Of a stretch of 64,000 bases of DNA, positions 2,721 through 46,490 are shown in pieces. The position numbers and the translations under genes were made by a program. Source of the stretch: Octopus vulgaris. Its lineage: Eukaryota. The stretch is taken from the NCBI GenBank assembly GCA_951406725.2, contig OX597821.1, positions 54,622,001 through 54,686,000 of the forward strand. Direction: 5' to 3'. The notes under the pieces are model-generated. The model was not told where the DNA came from and made no database searches. It worked only from the letters and a program-made list of their open reading frames with translations. Each line of letters starts with the position of its first letter. Positions within the stretch are counted from its first letter, which is position 1.

Positions 2721-2997
2721 GGGGAAATTTCAAACCTGGGTTCTCAATCCTGAGGTATTTTTTGATGTTATTGTTGTTGTTATTATTATTAGTACTATTA
2801 TTATCATTATCATTATTATTATTAAGGTCACTGCCTGGAATCAAACTCGGAACCTTGGGGTTAGTAGCCAGTGCTCTTAACCACTACACCATATGCACAT
2901 GAGCATTTGGTGTAGTGGTTAAAAGTGCTGGCTACTAACCCCAAAATTCTGAGTTCAATTCCAGGCAGTGACCTTAATAATGATAACAATGATAATG

Positions 2998-3080
<83 letters not shown>

Positions 3081-6375: not shown

Positions 6376-8305
6376 TTATTGCACAACTTGTAACATGTAC
6401 ATGTGTGCATGCATATATGTGAGTGTGTGTAACAAGCTGTGTGATAAGGCAGCAGTGCATGTTTAACTCGCTTTAAGTCACTCAGCTTATTTATCCTCAA
6501 AATATTCTGCTAGATTCAAGCATGAACCTCTGATCACAGTTATTTGTCATCATCAAAGAACATCACATCCCAGTTGATGATGTGTGTTTATAATACACAT
6601 GGATTCATTGATGCAAGGGGCTTTGAGACACCACAGTGTTTTGACCCTACTGCGTGTCTCCTCAGTCAAAGCTACCTTACTGAACCAATGAATCTAAAAA
6701 GAGCACTGGCTCTTGTTTATAAGTATCAGCAAACAAACTATTTGCTGATGTTGGCTGATGTCTACCAAACAGATAATATTATATGAGGTGTATGCAGAAG
6801 AACAGAAACCCTCACAACAACACATCCATTCATCCTTAATAAATTTTGTGAGATATCAAGAATGAATATTTGATCTTTTTTGTTTTTTGTCATCAGAGAA
6901 TATATCTCCTCCCTTCAGAAGTTTTGTAATATTCTCTATAAAAATCTACAGTTCACAAAGTTCAGTGAATTTGGACAACTCAGCAACTTTTATTCAGTAT
7001 AGATTGATTTCAAGGATCTATACTCTTATCCCCATAACTCATCTTTCCACCCCACTTTATTTATATTGTTTCCATATAATCCTTTTAACGTCTTTGTATT
7101 TTCTGTTATTCAGTCACAACATAACAGAGATGATCAGGCTTTATATAAGAAACATCACTATGCTGTTAGGAAGAGAGCTCAGAAAACTTCAGACATTGAT
7201 ACATATATATATATATAAATATATCTTATACATTATGTGTGTGTATATATGTATGTATGCATGTATATATGTATGGATGGATGGATGTAATGTAAGTTAT
7301 GTGTCTGTGAACATATGTGATTATGTATTGGTATTAAGTCATTCAGACTAGCAGTTAATTTTAGTGCTGTTTACTGATGGAAACTGTGAAGGTATTGACT
7401 GGAAATTGAATACATACAACAATGATGAGGATCTTAATCACAATCTCTAGGAAGCAGAAGTGTGAAGCAAGGAATAGTAGATGAATACTTGAGACTGTGG
7501 TGGAAAAACTTCAGACTAACAGTGCATGCCAAGAAATTTAAGTACAAAGATTAAAGCTAATAAGATAAGATAAGAAATAAATAGACAGATAAAGAGTAAA
7601 ATAAAATGAGGAAATACAAATATAAAATAAAAATTATATAAATGATGAATATAAAAAAAGATCAAATAACAAAAGAGAGAAAATTGATATAGAAGTAAGT
7701 AAATATTAGAAAATAAAAAGACATTACATAAACCAATGAATAATAAAATCTGTTATATTTTGGAAAAAGAAATGTTAAGTGAATTAGAAGAAATGTGGTT
7801 GTTTGTTTTGAAAGAGTTAATGAAGTGTGTATAAGTTATAAAGCTATTGTTGTATATCACCTAGAGTCAGCATAGCCTTCACTGTAATAACTAAAACAAG
7901 TTAAAGAACACTCCAGAGATTAGTACTCAGAATGTTGTTATTTAGTAAAATAATTGAATTTGAATTTTCCGTTCAAATATCATAGTTTAATACTTCCTTC
8001 AGGTCCCCATTGGTTCACTTTATTATAAGTAAATTATTCATACATATAACATATCTCTCTCTGTATGTGTGTGTATGTGTAGATGACTATATATGTGTGT
8101 GTGTATATATATATATTACTGATATTAACGGCGGTGCATCAGCATGGCCGCAGCTCTGAGCTGAAACTAGAGAAAAAATATATATATATATATAAAGGGC
8201 AAGACAACAAAAGAATGAAAGAGACCTCGATATTATGTAAATAAAGGAATTTATCTATAAATATTATATGCGACAATTATTCGGCCTTGTCTTGTATGCA
8301 TATAT

Positions 8306-8780: not shown

Positions 8781-8810
<30 letters not shown>

Positions 8811-9461
8811 ACAAAATTAGAGAATGGAGAAACATACTTAAATCAATAAAACATCAACTATCCGATGATACTCAATCCATACTTTAATACACCATTACAT
8901 AGGAGTAAAGGCAATATATAAAATGAAATGAGATATACAGTAATAGTAAAAGTAAAAAGATAAAGAGATATAAGTAAAAAATTACAAATACAATATGCAA
9001 ATAAATCAAAACTGACAGCTGTTTCGGCAGTGAGGACAGTCATACCTCATTTAACCTATAAGCCATAAAGGCAGGTATAAATGAGGCATTAACAAAGATG
9101 CCCCACGGCCTCTTCAGAGAATTAAATTAAATTTGTTATAATAGTGAAAAATATTATATAATCATATACATATAAATATAAAAATATAAAAAAGTAAAAT
9201 ATAAAAACTTATACATCATAATGCTACACTTGTATAATATAATACACATTTGTACAAAAAGGAAGGTAACCAGAACAAAATAAAACAAAATATATAACAG
9301 TGTATATATAATATTAATAAGTACCGATATCATACATATTTAGCTAATAGTTTTTTTTATAAAAAAAAGGGCTAACCCATATGGAGATGAAAAATAATAA
9401 TAATTAAATCCGTGGTACAGTTCATAAAATTCTAAAGCTATAAAAGTTAATAAAAATTACT

Positions 9462-9501
<40 letters not shown>

Positions 9502-10430
9502 GTAATAATAATAAAAAATAATAATAATAATAAAAATAGATACAGTTAAGTTATCACCAAGTCCATCCTTCCAAGATCGAAATAACTATTATTATTATTA
9601 TTAATAGTAATTTTTATTAACTTTTATAGCTTTAGAATTTTATGAACTGTACCACGGATTTAATTATTATTATTTTTCATCTCCATATGGGTTAGCCCTT
9701 TTTTTATAAAAAAAACTATTAGCTAAATATGTATGATATCGGTACTTATTAATATTATATATACACTGTTATATATTTTGTTTTATTTTGTTCTGGTTAC
9801 CTTCCTTTTTGTACAAATGTGTATTATATTATACAAGTGTAGCATTATGATGTATAAGTTTTTATATTTTACTTTTTTATATTTTTATATTTATATGTAT
9901 ATGATTATATAATATTTTTCACTATTATAACAAATTTAATTTAATTCTCTGAAGAGGCCGTGGGGCATCTTTGTTAATGCCTCATTTATACCTGCCTTTA
10001 TGGCTTATAGGTTAAATGAGGTATGACTGTCCTCACTGCCGAAACAGCTGTCAGTTTTGATTTATTTGCATATTGTATTTGTAATTTTTTACTTATATCT
10101 CTTTATCTTTTTACTTTTACTATTACTGTATATCTCATTTCATTTTATATATTGCCTTTACTCCTATGTAATGGTGTATTAAAGTATGGATTGAGTATCA
10201 TCGGATAGTTGATGTTTTATTGATTTAAGTATGTTTCTCCATTCTCTAATTTTGTAGTATTAATTTACGGTAATATTATTACCCTTACCCATTTAATACA
10301 ATAGATGAACTGATTGCTTGACAATTTCTAACATCTATGTATTAATTTTGTTGGGTACCTATCTAGCAGTATATTGGATATATATTATCCCATGGTGGGT
10401 TGAATTTTCAACCCCTATCTCATTTTATAA
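8811..10430. mobile_element. Penelope-like non-coding element: ~670-bp near-perfect inverted repeat plus one-sided ~175-nt tail, inserted in (TA)n
   Basis: 8811-~9480 is the reverse complement of ~9587-10255 (identical 61-aa pseudo-ORF on both strands in the track; one 1-nt homopolymer indel noted). The right arm continues to ~10430. A fragment recurs at 30176-30270. Confidence 0.85.
9943..10060 (+). ncRNA. Hammerhead ribozyme motif with greatly extended stem II (inverse copy at ~9006-9123, minus strand)
   Basis: CTGAAGA (9949-9955), then GGCCGTGGGG...CCTCACTGCC enclosing ATGCCTCATTTA/TAAATGAGGTAT, then GAAACAGCTGTC (10041-10052) with palindromic ACAGCTGT stem III and GUC triplet. Confidence 0.7.
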
Positions 10431-10474
10431 TATATATATATACATATATTTACTGGCATATGTATGTCCCTTAT

Positions 10475-13536: not shown

Positions 13537-14460
13537 TCATCATCATCGTTTAACGTCCGCTTTCCGCGCTAGCACGGGTTGGACGGTTTGACCGGGTCTG
13601 GGAAGCCAGGGGCCGCTCCAGGCTCCAGTCTGAATCTGGCAGAGTTTCTACGGCTGGATGCCCTTCCTAACGCCAACCACTCCGTGAGTGGATTGGGTGC
13701 TTTTTACGTGCCACCTGCACAGGGGCCGGAGGGTCCGGCATCGTCACGATCGGTTCGAGCATTTTAACGTGTCAGCGGCACGGGGGCAACGAGGTCCGGG
13801 GTACTTTGGGGATCGGGGTATTTTGGGGATCCAGGGTACTTTGGGGATCCGGGGTACTTTGGGGATCCGGGGTACTTAGAATGGGTAGGGGGTATGTGGA
13901 ATTGCTGCAGAAAGCAGCCCGGGTCTTTGTAGTCACAGCATATCTCCAGAGATCTCGGTCCTTCGCCATTGCCTCAGTGAGGCCCAATGCTCTGAGGTCA
14001 TGCTTGACCCCCTCATCCCATGTCTTCCTGGGTCTACCTCTCCCCTGATACCTTCAACCGTTTGGGAGTGGCACTTCTTCACACATCTCTCTTCATCCAT
14101 CCGCAGCACATGACCATACCATCGCAAGCGTCGCTCTTGCACACCACATCTGATGCTTCTTATATCCAGCATTTCTCTCAGGATACTTACACTCTGTTTT
14201 GCGTGCACACTGACACTACACATCCAGCGGATCATGCTAGCTTCATTTCTTTCAAGTCTACGCATGTCTTCTGCAGTCACAGCCCATGTTTCATTACCGT
14301 GAAGCATGGCAGTTCGCACACATGCATCATACAATCTACCTTTTGCTCTGAGGGAGAGGCCTTTTGTTGCCAGTAGGGGTAGGAGCTTTCTGAACTTTGC
14401 CCAGGCTATTCGTATTCTAGTGGTGATACTCTCTGTGCATCCACCTCCGCTACTAACTTG

Positions 14461-14463
<3 letters not shown>
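13537..14463 (-). mobile_element. 5'-truncated RTE-clade LINE (RT C-terminus plus 3' UTR), frameshifted, inserted in (TA)n
   Basis: Translation RIRIAWAKFRKLLPLL...LYDACVRTAMLHGNETW...RRLRWYGHVLRM, then GRPRKTW...AKDRDLWR. (GAT)n tail at 13537-13550; 20-bp tandem repeat at 13790-13880. Confidence 0.9.
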
Positions 14464-14540
<77 letters not shown>

Positions 14541-15081
14541 ATGAGGAGGATGTTTCAGTGAATACAACTGAAACAGCATAAAAATGTAAATGGCGTTTGT
14601 GTATTATACTAAATGCATATACATCATATAAAGAAATTGCGTTCTGCTTTTTTTATCTGAGAGAAAATCTCTTCATAGACATGTAGTATTAAAAACACAA
14701 TATATAACAAAGTGAAACAAAATATCATAGCAACATTGACTCGTGGCAATGCTAGACATGTTTCACCCTCCTTGGTGCTTGTCAGTAATATATATCCATT
14801 TGTCACATGTCCGTTTTCCATGCTAGCATGGGTTGTTTATTTTTATGACAAGTTATAAATAAAAATGATTTAAAATTAAACTGGAGGATTACTCAATATT
14901 TTTTTAGTAGAGTACATGTATATTGACTTTTACAAGGTAGTAGATGACAGCAATTCTGAAATTTTGGCTTGTTTGCCTTCAAGTATGATTATCTAAAAAC
15001 ACTTCCCCTTGAATATGTATGTCTTGTTTTTTGTTTGTATGAAACTGCTGTCATATAGGATGAAACAAATCCTGGGGTTCT

Positions 15082-17215: not shown

Positions 17216-17234
17216 ACAATATATATATATATAT

Positions 17235-17562
17235 ATATAAGGATTTTTTGCATAATAAGATAAAAAAACCAAGGTTGTATAGATATTAGAGCATTTATAG
17301 ATAGGTCTTACAGCTGTTTCTAGGATATTAAGACCTTCTATCCATAAATGCTCTAATATCTATACAGCCTTGGTTTTTAATCTTATTACACAAAAAATTC
17401 TTATATACACACACTGACATAGAACCAACATTGAACCCTTTATTCACAATATTACCGAATCTGGAACTTAACTATGGTCTGTCTATAGCACTTATTCAGT
17501 ATTACCTGACACCTTTGGGTCTCAATGACACCATTATCTCTTATAACCTCAACTTCTCGCTT
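17235..17562. mobile_element. Penelope-like hairpin-plus-tail insertion in (TA)n with half-hammerhead in the loop
   Basis: Arms ~17235-17310 / ~17329-17406. Loop reads GAAACAGCTGTA on the minus strand (17309-17320). About 150-nt unpaired tail. Confidence 0.7.
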
Positions 17563-20382: not shown

Positions 20383-22728
20383 CACTGATCAACAAAATTA
20401 AATGTATTACACTCATTATGAATGCAAACCAACATTTTAAGACTAATTTTTCATACTGATTTCAAAATTTCACTGTTTGTATGCAGTATATATCAGTTTT
20501 TCAGTAGATATGTATTTGTATATATGAAATCATTAATGTAGCTAATAAGTACATATCGTTTTAAGAAAGTAAATGAGTTTATTGGATTAAAAATCATCAC
20601 TCATTCTATAAAGAATGAATACACACAAAAATGGGTCAGACAAAAAACAGACAAAGTTAGAACAACAGAGTTAGAAACATTGTGATTTGGATTTCCTGCA
20701 GTGTTCCTGATTTGGTTGATTATGGTAAAGTGTCCAGCAATAGTCAGCCTGCATAATGTCATTCCAGAAGCCTTGATACTGCTTCTCCATAGCACTAATG
20801 TCCTGGTGAAATCTTTCACTATGTTCATCAGACACTGCTCCAAGGTTATCTGTGAAGAAATCCAGATGGGAGTCTAAGAAGAGAACTTTCAGTGACATAC
20901 GAAGAATATTTCAGAAGATTCTTGATGCCATCCTTGTAGTTCATTGCCTTCTTATTGCCAAAGAAATTCTCACAGATCCAATTGAAAGCATTGCAGGCAG
21001 CTCCAGTTCATCCAGTGCTGTCTTGAAGCTAACGTCTTTGTCGAACTCCAAATTAGAGAAGTACTCAAAGATACTCTCTTTCAACTTCGTCTGTGTGATT
21101 TTGAGAAACTTTTCTACAATATACTCAAACCCTCTGGCATTTCTCTTCCCTAGTGTCTTTACAAGCTGTTTCATCAGTCCAAGCTTTATGTGCAAAGGAG
21201 GCAACAGAGCATTATATGGATCTACAAGAAGTGTATTCTTGATGCTGGACAGTCCTATCTGGTACGATATTCTTGTCTGCCAATTTGATTCTGAATAATG
21301 CCTGTCAGTTGCCCGACAATCTCACAGACATAAGAAACAACAGTATTTTGTGAAATCTAACTGCATTCCCATTAAAATTCCAATGACTTTTAAATCTTCA
21401 CATATTTTCCATGAGTATCTTTCATAGGTAATGGCATGAAGTAAAGTTCCATATTCTCATGGTTCATGAAGATGAGCGAAATGTGCAACAGGAATGGAGG
21501 ACTTCAAATTACCATTATGGATAAGTACAGCTTTTAAACTTCGTTTTGAAGAGTCAATAAACAAACGCCAGTCTGCAGAACCATGATTTTGTGATAAACA
21601 TTCAAAAAGACAATCGATGCTACTGCAAAAGCAAAGGGGGCCTTTAACAGTAAAACGTGTTTGTAGAACCACATTTCTGTGCCAAAAATAGGTTATACAA
21701 GCACTGTGCTCTAGAAGATATTTCTCCTTAAGTCTTGATGTCAACAGTTCTGCTTTATCTTTTGAGAGGGATAGGTCTCTGACAAGTTCATTCAGTTCAG
21801 CTTGGGAAAATTTCTGAGGTTCAAAGCTATCGTCATCAACCACATAATCTTCCTCAGCAGCACTAACATGACAGTTAGCATCATCATCTGACGTTTCAAT
21901 ACCATCATCTGGTGGAACTGGAATTGGCAGGCTTCCATTGTGAGGCACAGGTTTCATTGTAGAATCCAAATTGGGATACACAATTTTGTATTTATTCTTC
22001 ATAAAAAATCTTGTGACACTTACTTTGCAAAATTAACAGTCATTAAAACTGCCTTTCAGTTCCCTCCATATCATTGGAGTGGCAAAAGGCATGGACTTCT
22101 TATAATTGAACCAGTTATGTATGCCATTTGAACAAGCTGAGCAGATTAAATGTGGTGCCCATAACTTTTCCTGATCTACAAGAGGTCAGTCAAAGTATTG
22201 CTTATAAATTTCTTGATCTCTGGTGTTATTGTACATTTTTGAGCTTTCACAATAAATTGTCCACAGACATAGCAAAACACCTCAGGATGATTACTATATT
22301 GTCTTGATATTGTTAATACTATAAAACAAGTAAGGAAATAAATACAAACGGTTATACTCATATTGAATTTGAGATGAGGAAATATTTCATCAGACCAATT
22401 ATGACTGGACAAGTTGAGATGTTGAAATACCTATTTCCTCAGACAAAATTTGATTGGTTAATTTAAGATGATGAAATAATACATAATAATGCAGCAATGA
22501 ATAATGTAGTTTATTTTAAAGGTATGTTTCAATGAGGTAAATGAAATACATGCGTACACTTCATTACTTGGAATTTCTGTATAATGCATGAGCTAAAACC
22601 AAAAAACTTTCTCATCTTGAAAAAAGTACGGGACGTCAAAATACTAATTGTATATTTGAAATCAGCATTAAAAACTACACTAAGTACACCTTGACATATG
22701 CTTGATAAAAAATACTTATTGATAGGTG
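20383..22728 (-). mobile_element. Chapaev3-type (CMC) DNA transposon, near full length, transposase disrupted
   Basis: ORF pieces HPEVFCYVCG, YPNLDSTMKPVPH, FSQAELNELVRDLSLSKDKAELL, WRLFIDSSKRSLKAVL, PPLHIKLGLMKQ, VSDEHSERFHQDI. CAC...GTG termini, TTA flanking both sides (TWA-type TSD), subterminal gatttcaaa/tttgaaatc. Confidence 0.88.
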
Positions 22729-28189: not shown

Positions 28190-28232
<43 letters not shown>

Positions 28233-28236
<4 letters not shown>

Positions 28237-28444
28237 TCGTTTAACGTCCGCTTTCCATGCTACCATGGGTTGGACGATTTGACTGAGGTCTGGCAAACCA
28301 GATGGCTGCACCAGACTCTAATTTGAGCTGTAGAAAGTCTGCCAGATCAGATTGGAGCCTGGTGCAGCCACTGGTTCACCAGACTTCACTCAAATCGTCC
28401 AACCCATGCTAGCATGGAAAGCGGATGTTAAACAATGATGATGA
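28233..28444. mobile_element. Two RTE 3' ends joined head-to-head within (TA)n
   Basis: catcgtttaacgtccgctttccatgct... and ...agcatggaaagcggatgttaaacaatgatg form ~95-bp inverted arms. Confidence 0.8.
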
Positions 28445-28456
28445 TATATATATATA

Positions 28457-29929: not shown

Positions 29930-30162
29930 TATATATTAGAAGAAATGAGGTAATCAGAAGATCGGATGGTTTATATTTACAGATATTTATTTATATATTA
30001 TATTTTTTACATATATATCATATCATTTAGATCTAAATGATATGATATATATGTAAAAAATGTAATATATAAATAAATATCTGTAAATATAAACCATCCG
30101 ATCTTCTGATTACCTCATTTCTTCTAATATATAATACCTGTACATCATCTCCAAACCTTCCA
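29930..30162. mobile_element. ~100-bp-arm near-perfect palindrome plus ~30-nt tail in (TA)n (Penelope-like hairpin-plus-tail)
   Basis: Symmetry centre aga|tct at 30031/30032, no spacer. Unpaired tail atacctgtacatcatctccaaaccttcc. Confidence 0.75.
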
Positions 30163-30175
30163 ATATATATATATA

Positions 30176-30270
30176 TGTAATGGTGTATTAAAGTATGGAT
30201 TGAGTATCATCGGATAGTTGATGTTTTACTGATTTAAGTATGTTTCTCCATTCTCTAATTTTGTAGTATA
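30176..30270 (+). mobile_element. Fragment of the 8811-10430 element family
   Basis: Near-identical to 10167-10260. Confidence 0.85.
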
Positions 30271-44134: not shown

Positions 44135-46490
44135 CAGATAGTATCAATATCTGTCAGTGGTCTACTTATTCAGAGAAAGTCTTACTCTTCAGGTAGTGGT
44201 GAAAAAATATGGAAGCCTACCTCTCCAGATAATACCAAGACCCATCAGAGATCTAGCACTCCAGCGTGTCAACATCCATCAGAGATCTACCACTTCAGAC
44301 CACATCAATACCCATCAGAGATCTGTCTCTTTGGATAGTGTTGCTAAATTTCACATGTCTACCACTCTGGATAATATCAAATATATATCTTGTCAAATAT
44401 TTAACTCATCAGATAATGTTGACAACCAGTAGACATCTACATTTGAGACAGTGCAGATGATCATATTATACCTCAGATAGTGCTGACATCCTTCAAAGAT
44501 CTATCTCTTCAGAAAGTGTTGACACCTTTCAAATGTCTACTTTTTTGACAAACATCAGACATCTACCCTTCAAAGTATTGCATTCTATCCAAGGTTTACC
44601 TTCTTCAGAGAGAGTTAATACACATGAAATATCTACTTATTCCAATAGTGTCAGCACAACTCAGAGTGGTATCTCTTCAGATTGTGTCAACAACCGTCAG
44701 ATACTTCATAAGATAATGTCAACACATATCAGAAGTCCACTTCTCTAGATACTGTTGACATTTATCAAAGGTCTACCTCTTTAGCTAGTATCAGTACCCA
44801 TTACTGAGTAATACTTCAAATATAGATGATGCTCAACAAAGGACCACCTGTTCCTATAGTGTTAATAACTATGAGAGTTCTACCCCTGATAGTATCAAAT
44901 AATCAACCACTTCAGATAATGTTGACAAATATCAGAAGCCTCCAAAAACAAAATCAAATGTCATTCCCAAGCCATAGGCTCATAAGACCAGTTTCCTTGA
45001 TTCTGTAGTGTATATAATACCAACTGGCCAGGATGTCAGTCCATACAGGAGAACTCAATTTTGCTACCTGACTAAATGGCGCAACATGAACTGTTTTACT
45101 CAAGACAACACAGCATTTCCTGATCCATAATTTAAGCTGCAATCTTGCAATGATAAGTGCAATACCCTAACCACTAAGCCATGTGTCTTTGTATCAGAGG
45201 CTTTACTCTACAGATTTTAAGGTGTGGCTCTTCGGTGTCAACATCTCTCAGACATGTTCAGTTAATTTCAACACTCCTCAGACAATATTGACAACACATC
45301 AGGAATTTAATTGTTTTAATAGTCCTAAAACCCATCAGAAATCTACCATCTACCTTTATCCATAACATAGCCACCCATCAAAGGTGGTCTGCGTATATAA
45401 ATAATGCTGACAATGCCAGATGGTGTCTACACATTAGATGATGTCAACAGCCATCGTTTACTTCTTCACTTAGACTCCAGTCAGGCACCTTAGAAGGTGT
45501 TGATGGCCATCAGAAACCTCCTCCTTCAGATAGTGTAGACACTCATCAGAAGTCTGCCTGTTTAAAATACCAGTCAGAGGTATATTTTTTCTGATAGTGT
45601 CAACACACATTAGAAGAGGTCTAGCTCTTGAAACAGATAACCACTTGCATCAAAGATTTACCCTTACTTGTATTGCTGATGCCAAAACATTCAAATAGAG
45701 TAGGAACCCATCAGAGGTTTTACACAAGATAGTATTAAAATACAACAGAGGTGTACCTCTTCAGAGAACACTGACACCTATCTTAGAACTACCTCTTCAG
45801 ATAGAGCTGGTGCCCATTATAGATGGTCTACTACTTTGGATAATGTCGATATGTATCAAAGTTATATTTCTTCAGGTTTATAGTTACTTTGGTACTAATC
45901 AGAATTATAGCACTTCTGTTCAGATAGTATCAAAACCCATCAGAGTTTTATGTTCCTATGTAGTATCTACATCCATCAGTGATCTACCTCTTGAGATAGT
46001 GCCTACACCCACCAGAGCTCTGCTTCCTGAGAAAATGTTGACTCCCATGCAAGGCTTGCCTCTTCAAATATTCTTGGTACCCATCAGACGAGGTCTTCTT
46101 CTTCAGATTATCATCACACCCCAGAGTACTACTTCTCCAGGTATCATCATCATCTCCCAAGTTAGTATTGACACCCAATGGAGATGAACTGCTTCAAACA
46201 GTATTAGCATCCATCAGAGGCCTACTTACCTTTTCAGAAAGTGCTAACATCCAGCTGAAGTCTACCTCTTCAGATCAAGGCAACACCCATCAAAGGCCTA
46301 CTTGTACAGAGTGTGTTAACATCCATCAAAAATGTACTTCCTTAAATGATGTCAATATCTTTTAAAGTTTTACCTCTTCAGAGGGCTACTTTATCAGATA
46401 GTGTCAATACCCACCAGAGATATATATAACCCTTCAGATAGTGTTGTCACCCACGAAAAGTCAAATCTTAAGATAGTATTGATGTCTGCT
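44135..46490. repeat. Ancient decayed ~36-bp tandem array (consensus ~tcagatagtgtcaacacccatcagaggtctacctct), interrupted by a SINE at ~44950-45190
   Basis: Recurrent cagatagt.., acccatcaga and tctacctcttcag at ~36-nt spacing. Confidence 0.8.

Follow-up and report, generated by a model that had tools for sequence, protein, structure and literature searches.

Within the window, by which we mean the whole 64-kb stretch of Octopus vulgaris DNA that was analysed, positions 9949-10052 hold a type I hammerhead motif that is real and not a product of chance. The motif and the insertion that carries it comprise the following features.

9949..10052, + strand: type I hammerhead motif (C3 at 9949, C17 at 10052), read from the sequence; in full-length copies it has the orientation of the ORF
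9941..9948, + strand: 5' strand of helix I, partner of 10053-10060; 2 bp adjoin the core and U-U mismatches follow
9949-9955, + strand: core CUGAAGA, from the sequence
9956..10040, + strand: helix II, an irregular hairpin of 85 nt, from RNAfold, shuffles and covariation
10041-10043, + strand: core GAA, from the sequence
10044..10051, + strand: helix III palindrome ACAGCUGU, which reaches 8 bp only in a dimer, from folding and variants in relatives
10052, + strand: C17, with the predicted cut at 10052/10053, from the sequence
10053..10060, + strand: 3' strand of helix I, partner of 9941..9948
9014..9117, - strand: identical second copy of the motif, on the inverted arm (arms 673/675 identical)
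9587..10430, + strand: direct, 5'-truncated 3' end (pLTR) of a Penelope-like element (PLE), ending at (TA)n; blastn to L031 7022-7899, 97.7%
8806..9589, - strand: inverted, 5'-truncated pLTR copy beside (TA)n; blastn to L031 6929-7703, 96.6%

Anatomy of the motif and of the window insertion

CUGANGA, GAAA and UH follow one another in this order with an open helix I (9949-9955, 10041-10044 and 10051-10052), and three helices surround the core. Helix II is strong. It pairs GGCCGTGGGG (9956-9965) with CCTCACTGCC (10031-10040) and ATGCCTCATTTA (9977-9988) with TAAATGAGGTAT (10013-10024), with ACCT/AGGT and GCC/GGC in addition. A preliminary description of this DNA, made from the sequence, had named these pairings as a long foldable hairpin behind CUGAAGA; all of them are present, and RNAfold recovers the same hairpin at -44.1 kcal/mol (z -4.0), with 1 of 200 shuffled sequences equally good. 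For the inner helix II, z was -5.5 and none of 200 shuffles was as good. Helix I was rightly called weak, as it consists of 2 bp next to the core, a 2x2 U-U loop and four weak distal pairs. The 8-bp palindromic stem III of the same description stands in part: the 8 nt are self-complementary, and the full 8 bp form only between two molecules, a monomer being limited to 2 bp and a 4-nt loop.

Standard motif searches had been expected to miss such a variant, and Rfam returned no hammerhead match at the gathering score in the 64-kb window nor, in positions 8900-10200, any hammerhead at E<=10. The missing match is likely a consequence of the long arm, and a library match is not what defines the fold. 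A bacterial promoter scan, not applicable to such DNA, gave chance-level results.

By blastn, window positions 9587-10452 correspond to the last part of the full-length copy L031, and 8806-9589 match it in inverted orientation. The motif sits inside a 1.46-kb palindrome, and the last ~170 nt of the direct arm (10261-10430), referred to here as the tail, are missing from the inverted arm. The insertion holds no same-sense hammerhead partner, has no ORF and is 5'-truncated; this 5'-truncated, inverted, (TA)n-flanked arrangement is the layout given for PLEs in PMC8557442. In a read-through transcript of the locus, the two copies are predicted by folding to pair into one long 675-bp duplex. On this model, the window copy would be a dead, ORF-less insertion that stays silent in read-through RNA.

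Several other features of the window were recorded. At 30174-30269 (equivalent to 10165-10260), 96 bp of the same element, 5'-truncated and lacking the hammerhead, lie between (TA)n runs. Further short palindromic insertions occur at 29930-30133 (99% arm identity), 28218-28456 (86%), 17234-17407 (82%) and 2768-3034 (86%); the first of these has TA runs at its sides and might represent the terminus of a different PLE family. Three open frames gave no Pfam match, namely 13936-14652 (-), which we take to resemble a non-LTR RT remnant, 21460-22032 (-), presumably a possible transposase remnant, and 45699-46184 (+), which we assume to be a repetitive frame.

The parent element and its abundance

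In L031, direct repeats (1588-2291 and 7181-7884) surround ORFs for RT and endonuclease. Each repeat contains one hammerhead, located in the pLTR and in sense orientation to the RT ORF. Between the two, which are 5.6 kb apart, runs an ORF with motifs of an RT and, at its C-terminal end, of an endonuclease. An uninterrupted frame of 962 aa in L069 has RWR, DKT, YRDD, CxCX5C (CNCRNKNKC) and YIG, and CSLC and CIH are present in the frames of L031 and L032. The Hydra clade is diagnosed by an RT followed by a C-terminal GIY-YIG-type endonuclease, by RWK, DKT and a CxCX5C linker, and by CxxC and CxH in place of CCHH (the clade description in PMC8557442). The motifs of the parent agree with this diagnosis, RWK being changed to RWR (K to R), and the L069 protein (P0001) resembles by eye the Hydra proteins shown in the supplement of that paper. 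Pfam and PDB sequence searches with the parent ORF yielded no RT or GIY-YIG match. Insertions are found at (TA)n, and both tandem and inverted truncated copies exist. Judged by these sequence features, the parent is a young, abundant Hydra-clade Penelope-like retrotransposon of 5.6 kb. The RT tree covers the loci of this genome and database proteins; the named database relatives come from Argonauta and Octopus, which points to an octopod host.

Two other parents were considered. The Naiad clade was rejected on the C-terminal position of the endonuclease. A non-LTR retrozyme was likewise rejected, as the motif is part of a 5.6-kb coding unit and the window copy is an inverted pair, not a series of short non-coding tandem units.

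The element shares with the Hydra-clade PLEs described in PMC8557442 a sense type I motif near its 3' end, (TA)n targets and the RT motifs. Those elements are reported there as shorter than 3 kb with a tail of 30-40 bp, whereas ours measures 5.6 kb with a tail of ~170-180 nt. Family 3' ends fall in one of two places in 74 of 75 alignment rows (overlapping loci counted), separated by this ~170-180-nt tail; in L031 the tail occupies 7703-7884. The ORFs P0001 and P0002 (962 and 1090 aa) contain long Asn-rich linkers between the RT thumb and the endonuclease and are unrecognised by Pfam; their database relatives are mostly ~700 aa. A second PLE type (L036:3-982), with a GIY-YIG Pfam match and a CxxC linker, lies ~1 kb from a copy of the window's PLE family.

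A pattern for the window's lineage, consisting of the core, 74-98 nt and GAAACAGCTGTH, gave 1,815 matches in the genome, and the reversed pattern gave 0. A search of the 2.8-Gb genome returned 721 candidates, and all 40 scored matches were 100% identical over 146 nt. Exact matches of the youngest subfamily that run across the cut site number 625. For 65 of them on contig 1, neighbouring copies form 16 inverted and 4 direct pairs, the latter with a spacing of 5,573-5,603 bp; in tandem pLTR-ORF-pLTR copies, two same-strand motifs lie 5.6 kb from each other.

Helices II and III across RT lineages

Forty loci with related RTs (RT identity ~45% to 100%) were scanned, and an element-linked hammerhead was found in 26 of them; in the other 14, it was absent or unlinked. 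Helix II measures 51-100 nt in every linked hammerhead (up to 102 nt among relatives), with 85-100 nt (to 102) in the window's lineage and 57-61, 51 and 55 nt in three others, the four RT lineages being ~50% identical to each other. Helix III is an 8-mer in 26/26 and self-complementary in 25/26, the exception (L070) being a single-change copy; one of the underlying scans left helix III free except for its end letters, and two partly required symmetry. Seven versions of helix III occur, with the centres AGCU, GAUC, GAUU, AAUU, AUAU, ACGU and AUGU, two of which use G-U pairs. The first pair of helix I also varies by lineage (U-A, G-C or C-G). Dimer cleavage is supported because a self-complementary 8-mer has been kept in seven versions. 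Together with the folding predictions described below, these 8-mers in related families are consistent with the earlier proposal that the palindrome permits a dimeric ribozyme.

A short-armed Hydra family (L080, helix II of 14 nt) was also a candidate and was rejected, since its motif belongs to a separate 352-bp tandem repeat; L080 was therefore kept out of the linked count, and its label in the tree is wrong.

Covariation across genomic copies, which the preliminary description had put forward as a check, revealed compensatory changes in helix II. Alignment A2 holds 19 subfamily representatives of 80 distinct motifs in 20 clusters, all chosen by an intact core, and the core identity of 100% against 51-52% in the flanks is by construction, as rows were picked by core. 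Outside its base, helix II is 64-69% identical. In A2, 89.3% of helix II cells are paired, compared with 35-45% when the rows are slid. Both sides change in 8 of 27 pairs (8 of the 22 tested in helix II), four of them proximal and four distal (4/10 in the distal helix), and one helix II pair appears as A-U, G-U and G-C across subfamilies. The covariation score exceeded 500/500 shuffles and the pair count all but 5, in rows that are related to each other and from which the structure itself was derived. Inner arms fold better than the shuffled mean in 18 of the 19 representatives (z -1.8 to -7.0) and not in the remaining one. Run on A2, RNAalifold found helix II only in part and preferred a fold in which CUG pairs with CAG.

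The published comparisons bear mostly on arm length. In 26 rows of File S2 of PMC8557442, helix II plus loop of Hydra-clade PLE hammerheads measures 10-24 nt (22 nt in O. bimaculoides), and the core search described there allowed 7-17 nt. The window motif begins helix III with AC, ends it with GU and has self-complementary halves, as do those hammerheads; it departs from the listed rows, mostly with a helix III of 9-10 nt, in its 8-nt palindrome and 85-nt helix II. The preliminary description had called the motif an atypical PLE hammerhead, and with a Hydra-clade parent and these listed arm lengths we agree. The metazoan PLE hammerheads of Cervera and De la Pena (2014, PMC4209133) resemble it, as described there, in dimer-dependent architecture, in escaping descriptors, in the shortness of helix I (D. 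virilis has 2 bp) and in opposite-strand pairs in truncated copies. The helix II called large in that paper has 6-8 bp, in contrast to ~30 bp in stacked segments here, and the 'long helix II' mentioned in PMC13725137 has 6 bp. The deviating Selaginella PLE-X1 entry of File S2 (PMC8557442) also has a long helix II plus loop, ~53 nt there, yet it belongs to an unrelated plant lineage with a shorter arm and a different helix III. Among the freely accessible papers that we searched, none was found to describe a long helix II in cephalopod PLEs.

By these sequence tests, the motif would be a dimeric PLE hammerhead whose new feature is the length of its arm, palindromic helix III and dimer cleavage having already been described for PLE hammerheads (PMC4209133). 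Compared with the listed Hydra relatives, it extends the natural size range of hammerhead helix II about fourfold. Hammerhead chemistry and PLE classification are unchanged by the finding. In one genome, at least 1,815 motifs escape searches that are limited in length, and some reports of retroelements with no hammerhead may accordingly be search artefacts.

Proposed dimer model and possible role of the long arm

In the folded monomer, helix III has a pairing probability of 0.002 and the base of helix II one of 0.99. The minimum is an inactive fold in which CUG of the core pairs with CAG of the palindrome, and the active fold lies 5.2 kcal/mol above it. With two tandem copies, the gap between a double-hammerhead fold and the free minimum is 1.6 kcal/mol. 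It amounts to 0-14 kcal/mol in 11 other motifs (4-14 in 9/11), all dimer energies being nearest-neighbour values for a short linker that omit Mg and tertiary terms. Efficient cutting as a monomer, with the long arm giving the missing stability, would draw on the nearly always formed helix II base; given the rarity of helix III and the height of the active fold, and since conserving a palindrome would be of use only if copies pair with each other, we consider it very improbable.

Traces of cutting were sought in the genome. Eight copies lack C17, and 6 of them begin exactly at 10053; a seventh arm is found in L213/L214. Insertion 5' ends also occur at control positions, with 3 at 10049 (6 of 6 matches inspected), 6 at 10060 (11 of 11 inspected) and at least 5 at 10070 (30 of 38 inspected), and the 6/8 starts at the cut were rejected as a genomic fossil of cleavage on account of these three controls. 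The absence of a 5'-end excess at the cut implies that cut linear RNA is not the usual insertion template; religated circles would leave the same picture. It is also in line with the anole PLE hammerhead, which according to PMC11167929 depends on a protein and can be missing without preventing insertion in vitro.

The lack of such an excess could also be expected if the ribozyme of the young subfamily were a relic that no longer cuts and simply travels with the pLTR, and the monomer fold, which sequesters the core, points the same way. Relative to the older subfamilies L151, L071 and L178, the third pair of helix I has moreover been lost (AGA to AGU after the cut). What speaks against a relic is an intact core, along with the first two pairs of helix I, which 19/19 representatives (rows picked by core) retain. 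The change from AGA to AGU also weakens the competing fold, so that the dimer of the young subfamily lies nearer its minimum (+1.6) than those of its relatives (+7 to +8). We regard a relic as improbable.

What the arm does is the second question. It might be a working module that switches cleavage, as a binding site for the RT/endonuclease or a host dsRNA factor or as a tertiary brace. A long arm accompanies 26/26 linked hammerheads over four RT lineages that are ~50% identical, compensatory changes reach the distal helix (4/10 pairs), and in the anole PLE cleavage by the hammerhead requires the protein of the element (PMC11167929). This proposal is weakened by the difference in helix II length and sequence between lineages and by a 352-bp tandem repeat of the same genome, in which the same 8-nt helix III type goes with a 14-nt helix II. 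For a loop 1-loop 2 tertiary contact, no convincing or conserved helix I partner was seen by eye in A2. An ADAR-type footprint in helix II was not clearly raised either (A>G at 13/1696 A against T>C at 9/2194 T). By eye, no arm sequence is common to the four RT lineages. A helix II that is folded with an unshared sequence fits an arm that needs to stay folded better than a fixed binding site, and we consider the working module unlikely. Its most specific form, in which octopod Hydra-clade elements bear a 50-100-nt regulatory arm that is bound by their own RT/endonuclease or a host dsRNA enzyme and gates dimer cleavage, is a similarly doubtful prospect; if true, it would amount to a natural protein-switched hammerhead in thousands of copies unseen by Rfam.

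We favour, with moderate confidence, a type I hammerhead in the pLTR of a young Hydra-clade PLE that likely cuts after 10052 only as a double hammerhead, and whose helix II, at 85 nt, is probably an extension that is tolerated and kept folded by selection. The arm is taken to be tolerated rather than specific because its length ranges from 51 to 102 nt and no sequence common to the four RT lineages is seen. Under the favoured dimer model, two same-sense copies would pair through ACAGCUGU to form the double hammerhead, and the transcript of a tandem copy would bring both pLTR motifs together. Slow, perhaps protein-assisted cutting at both pLTRs might then release a unit-length RNA of ~5.6 kb; dimer cleavage at low rates is described for metazoan PLE hammerheads (PMC4209133, PMC6765202). 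The folded arm may matter mainly by presenting the base of helix II and by preventing its 85 nt from pairing wrongly with core nucleotides.

The Poseidon element PAc of Anolis (Frangieh et al. 2024, PMC11167929) offers a parallel, as there too, in the account cited, the hammerhead lies in the pLTR, genomic copies extend across the cut, and two 3' ends define a tail. PAc belongs to a different clade, its hammerhead overlaps the start codon, and protein assistance has been shown biochemically for it; the octopus motif is a prediction from sequence and folding. The family series, with a helix II of 51-102 nt and seven palindromes, forms a test set for the role of PLE hammerheads and their need for partner RNA or protein.

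Two further groups of hammerheads were noted in the genome. The 352-bp tandem repeat (L080:2885-2917 (-), G000:C2:14086399-14089421), with its 14-nt-arm hammerhead and helix III ACUCGAGU, probably represents a family of retrozymes whose insertions are inverted in the manner of PLEs. Hammerhead-like motifs unlinked to the studied RTs occur at L079:7572-7662, L086:2460-2538, L133:9643-9714, L141:6470-6521, L024:699-748 and L135:1774-1837. In these six, helix II measures 31-68 nt, and helix III is self-complementary and 8-12 nt long, which indicates that long arms are not limited to the window's lineage.
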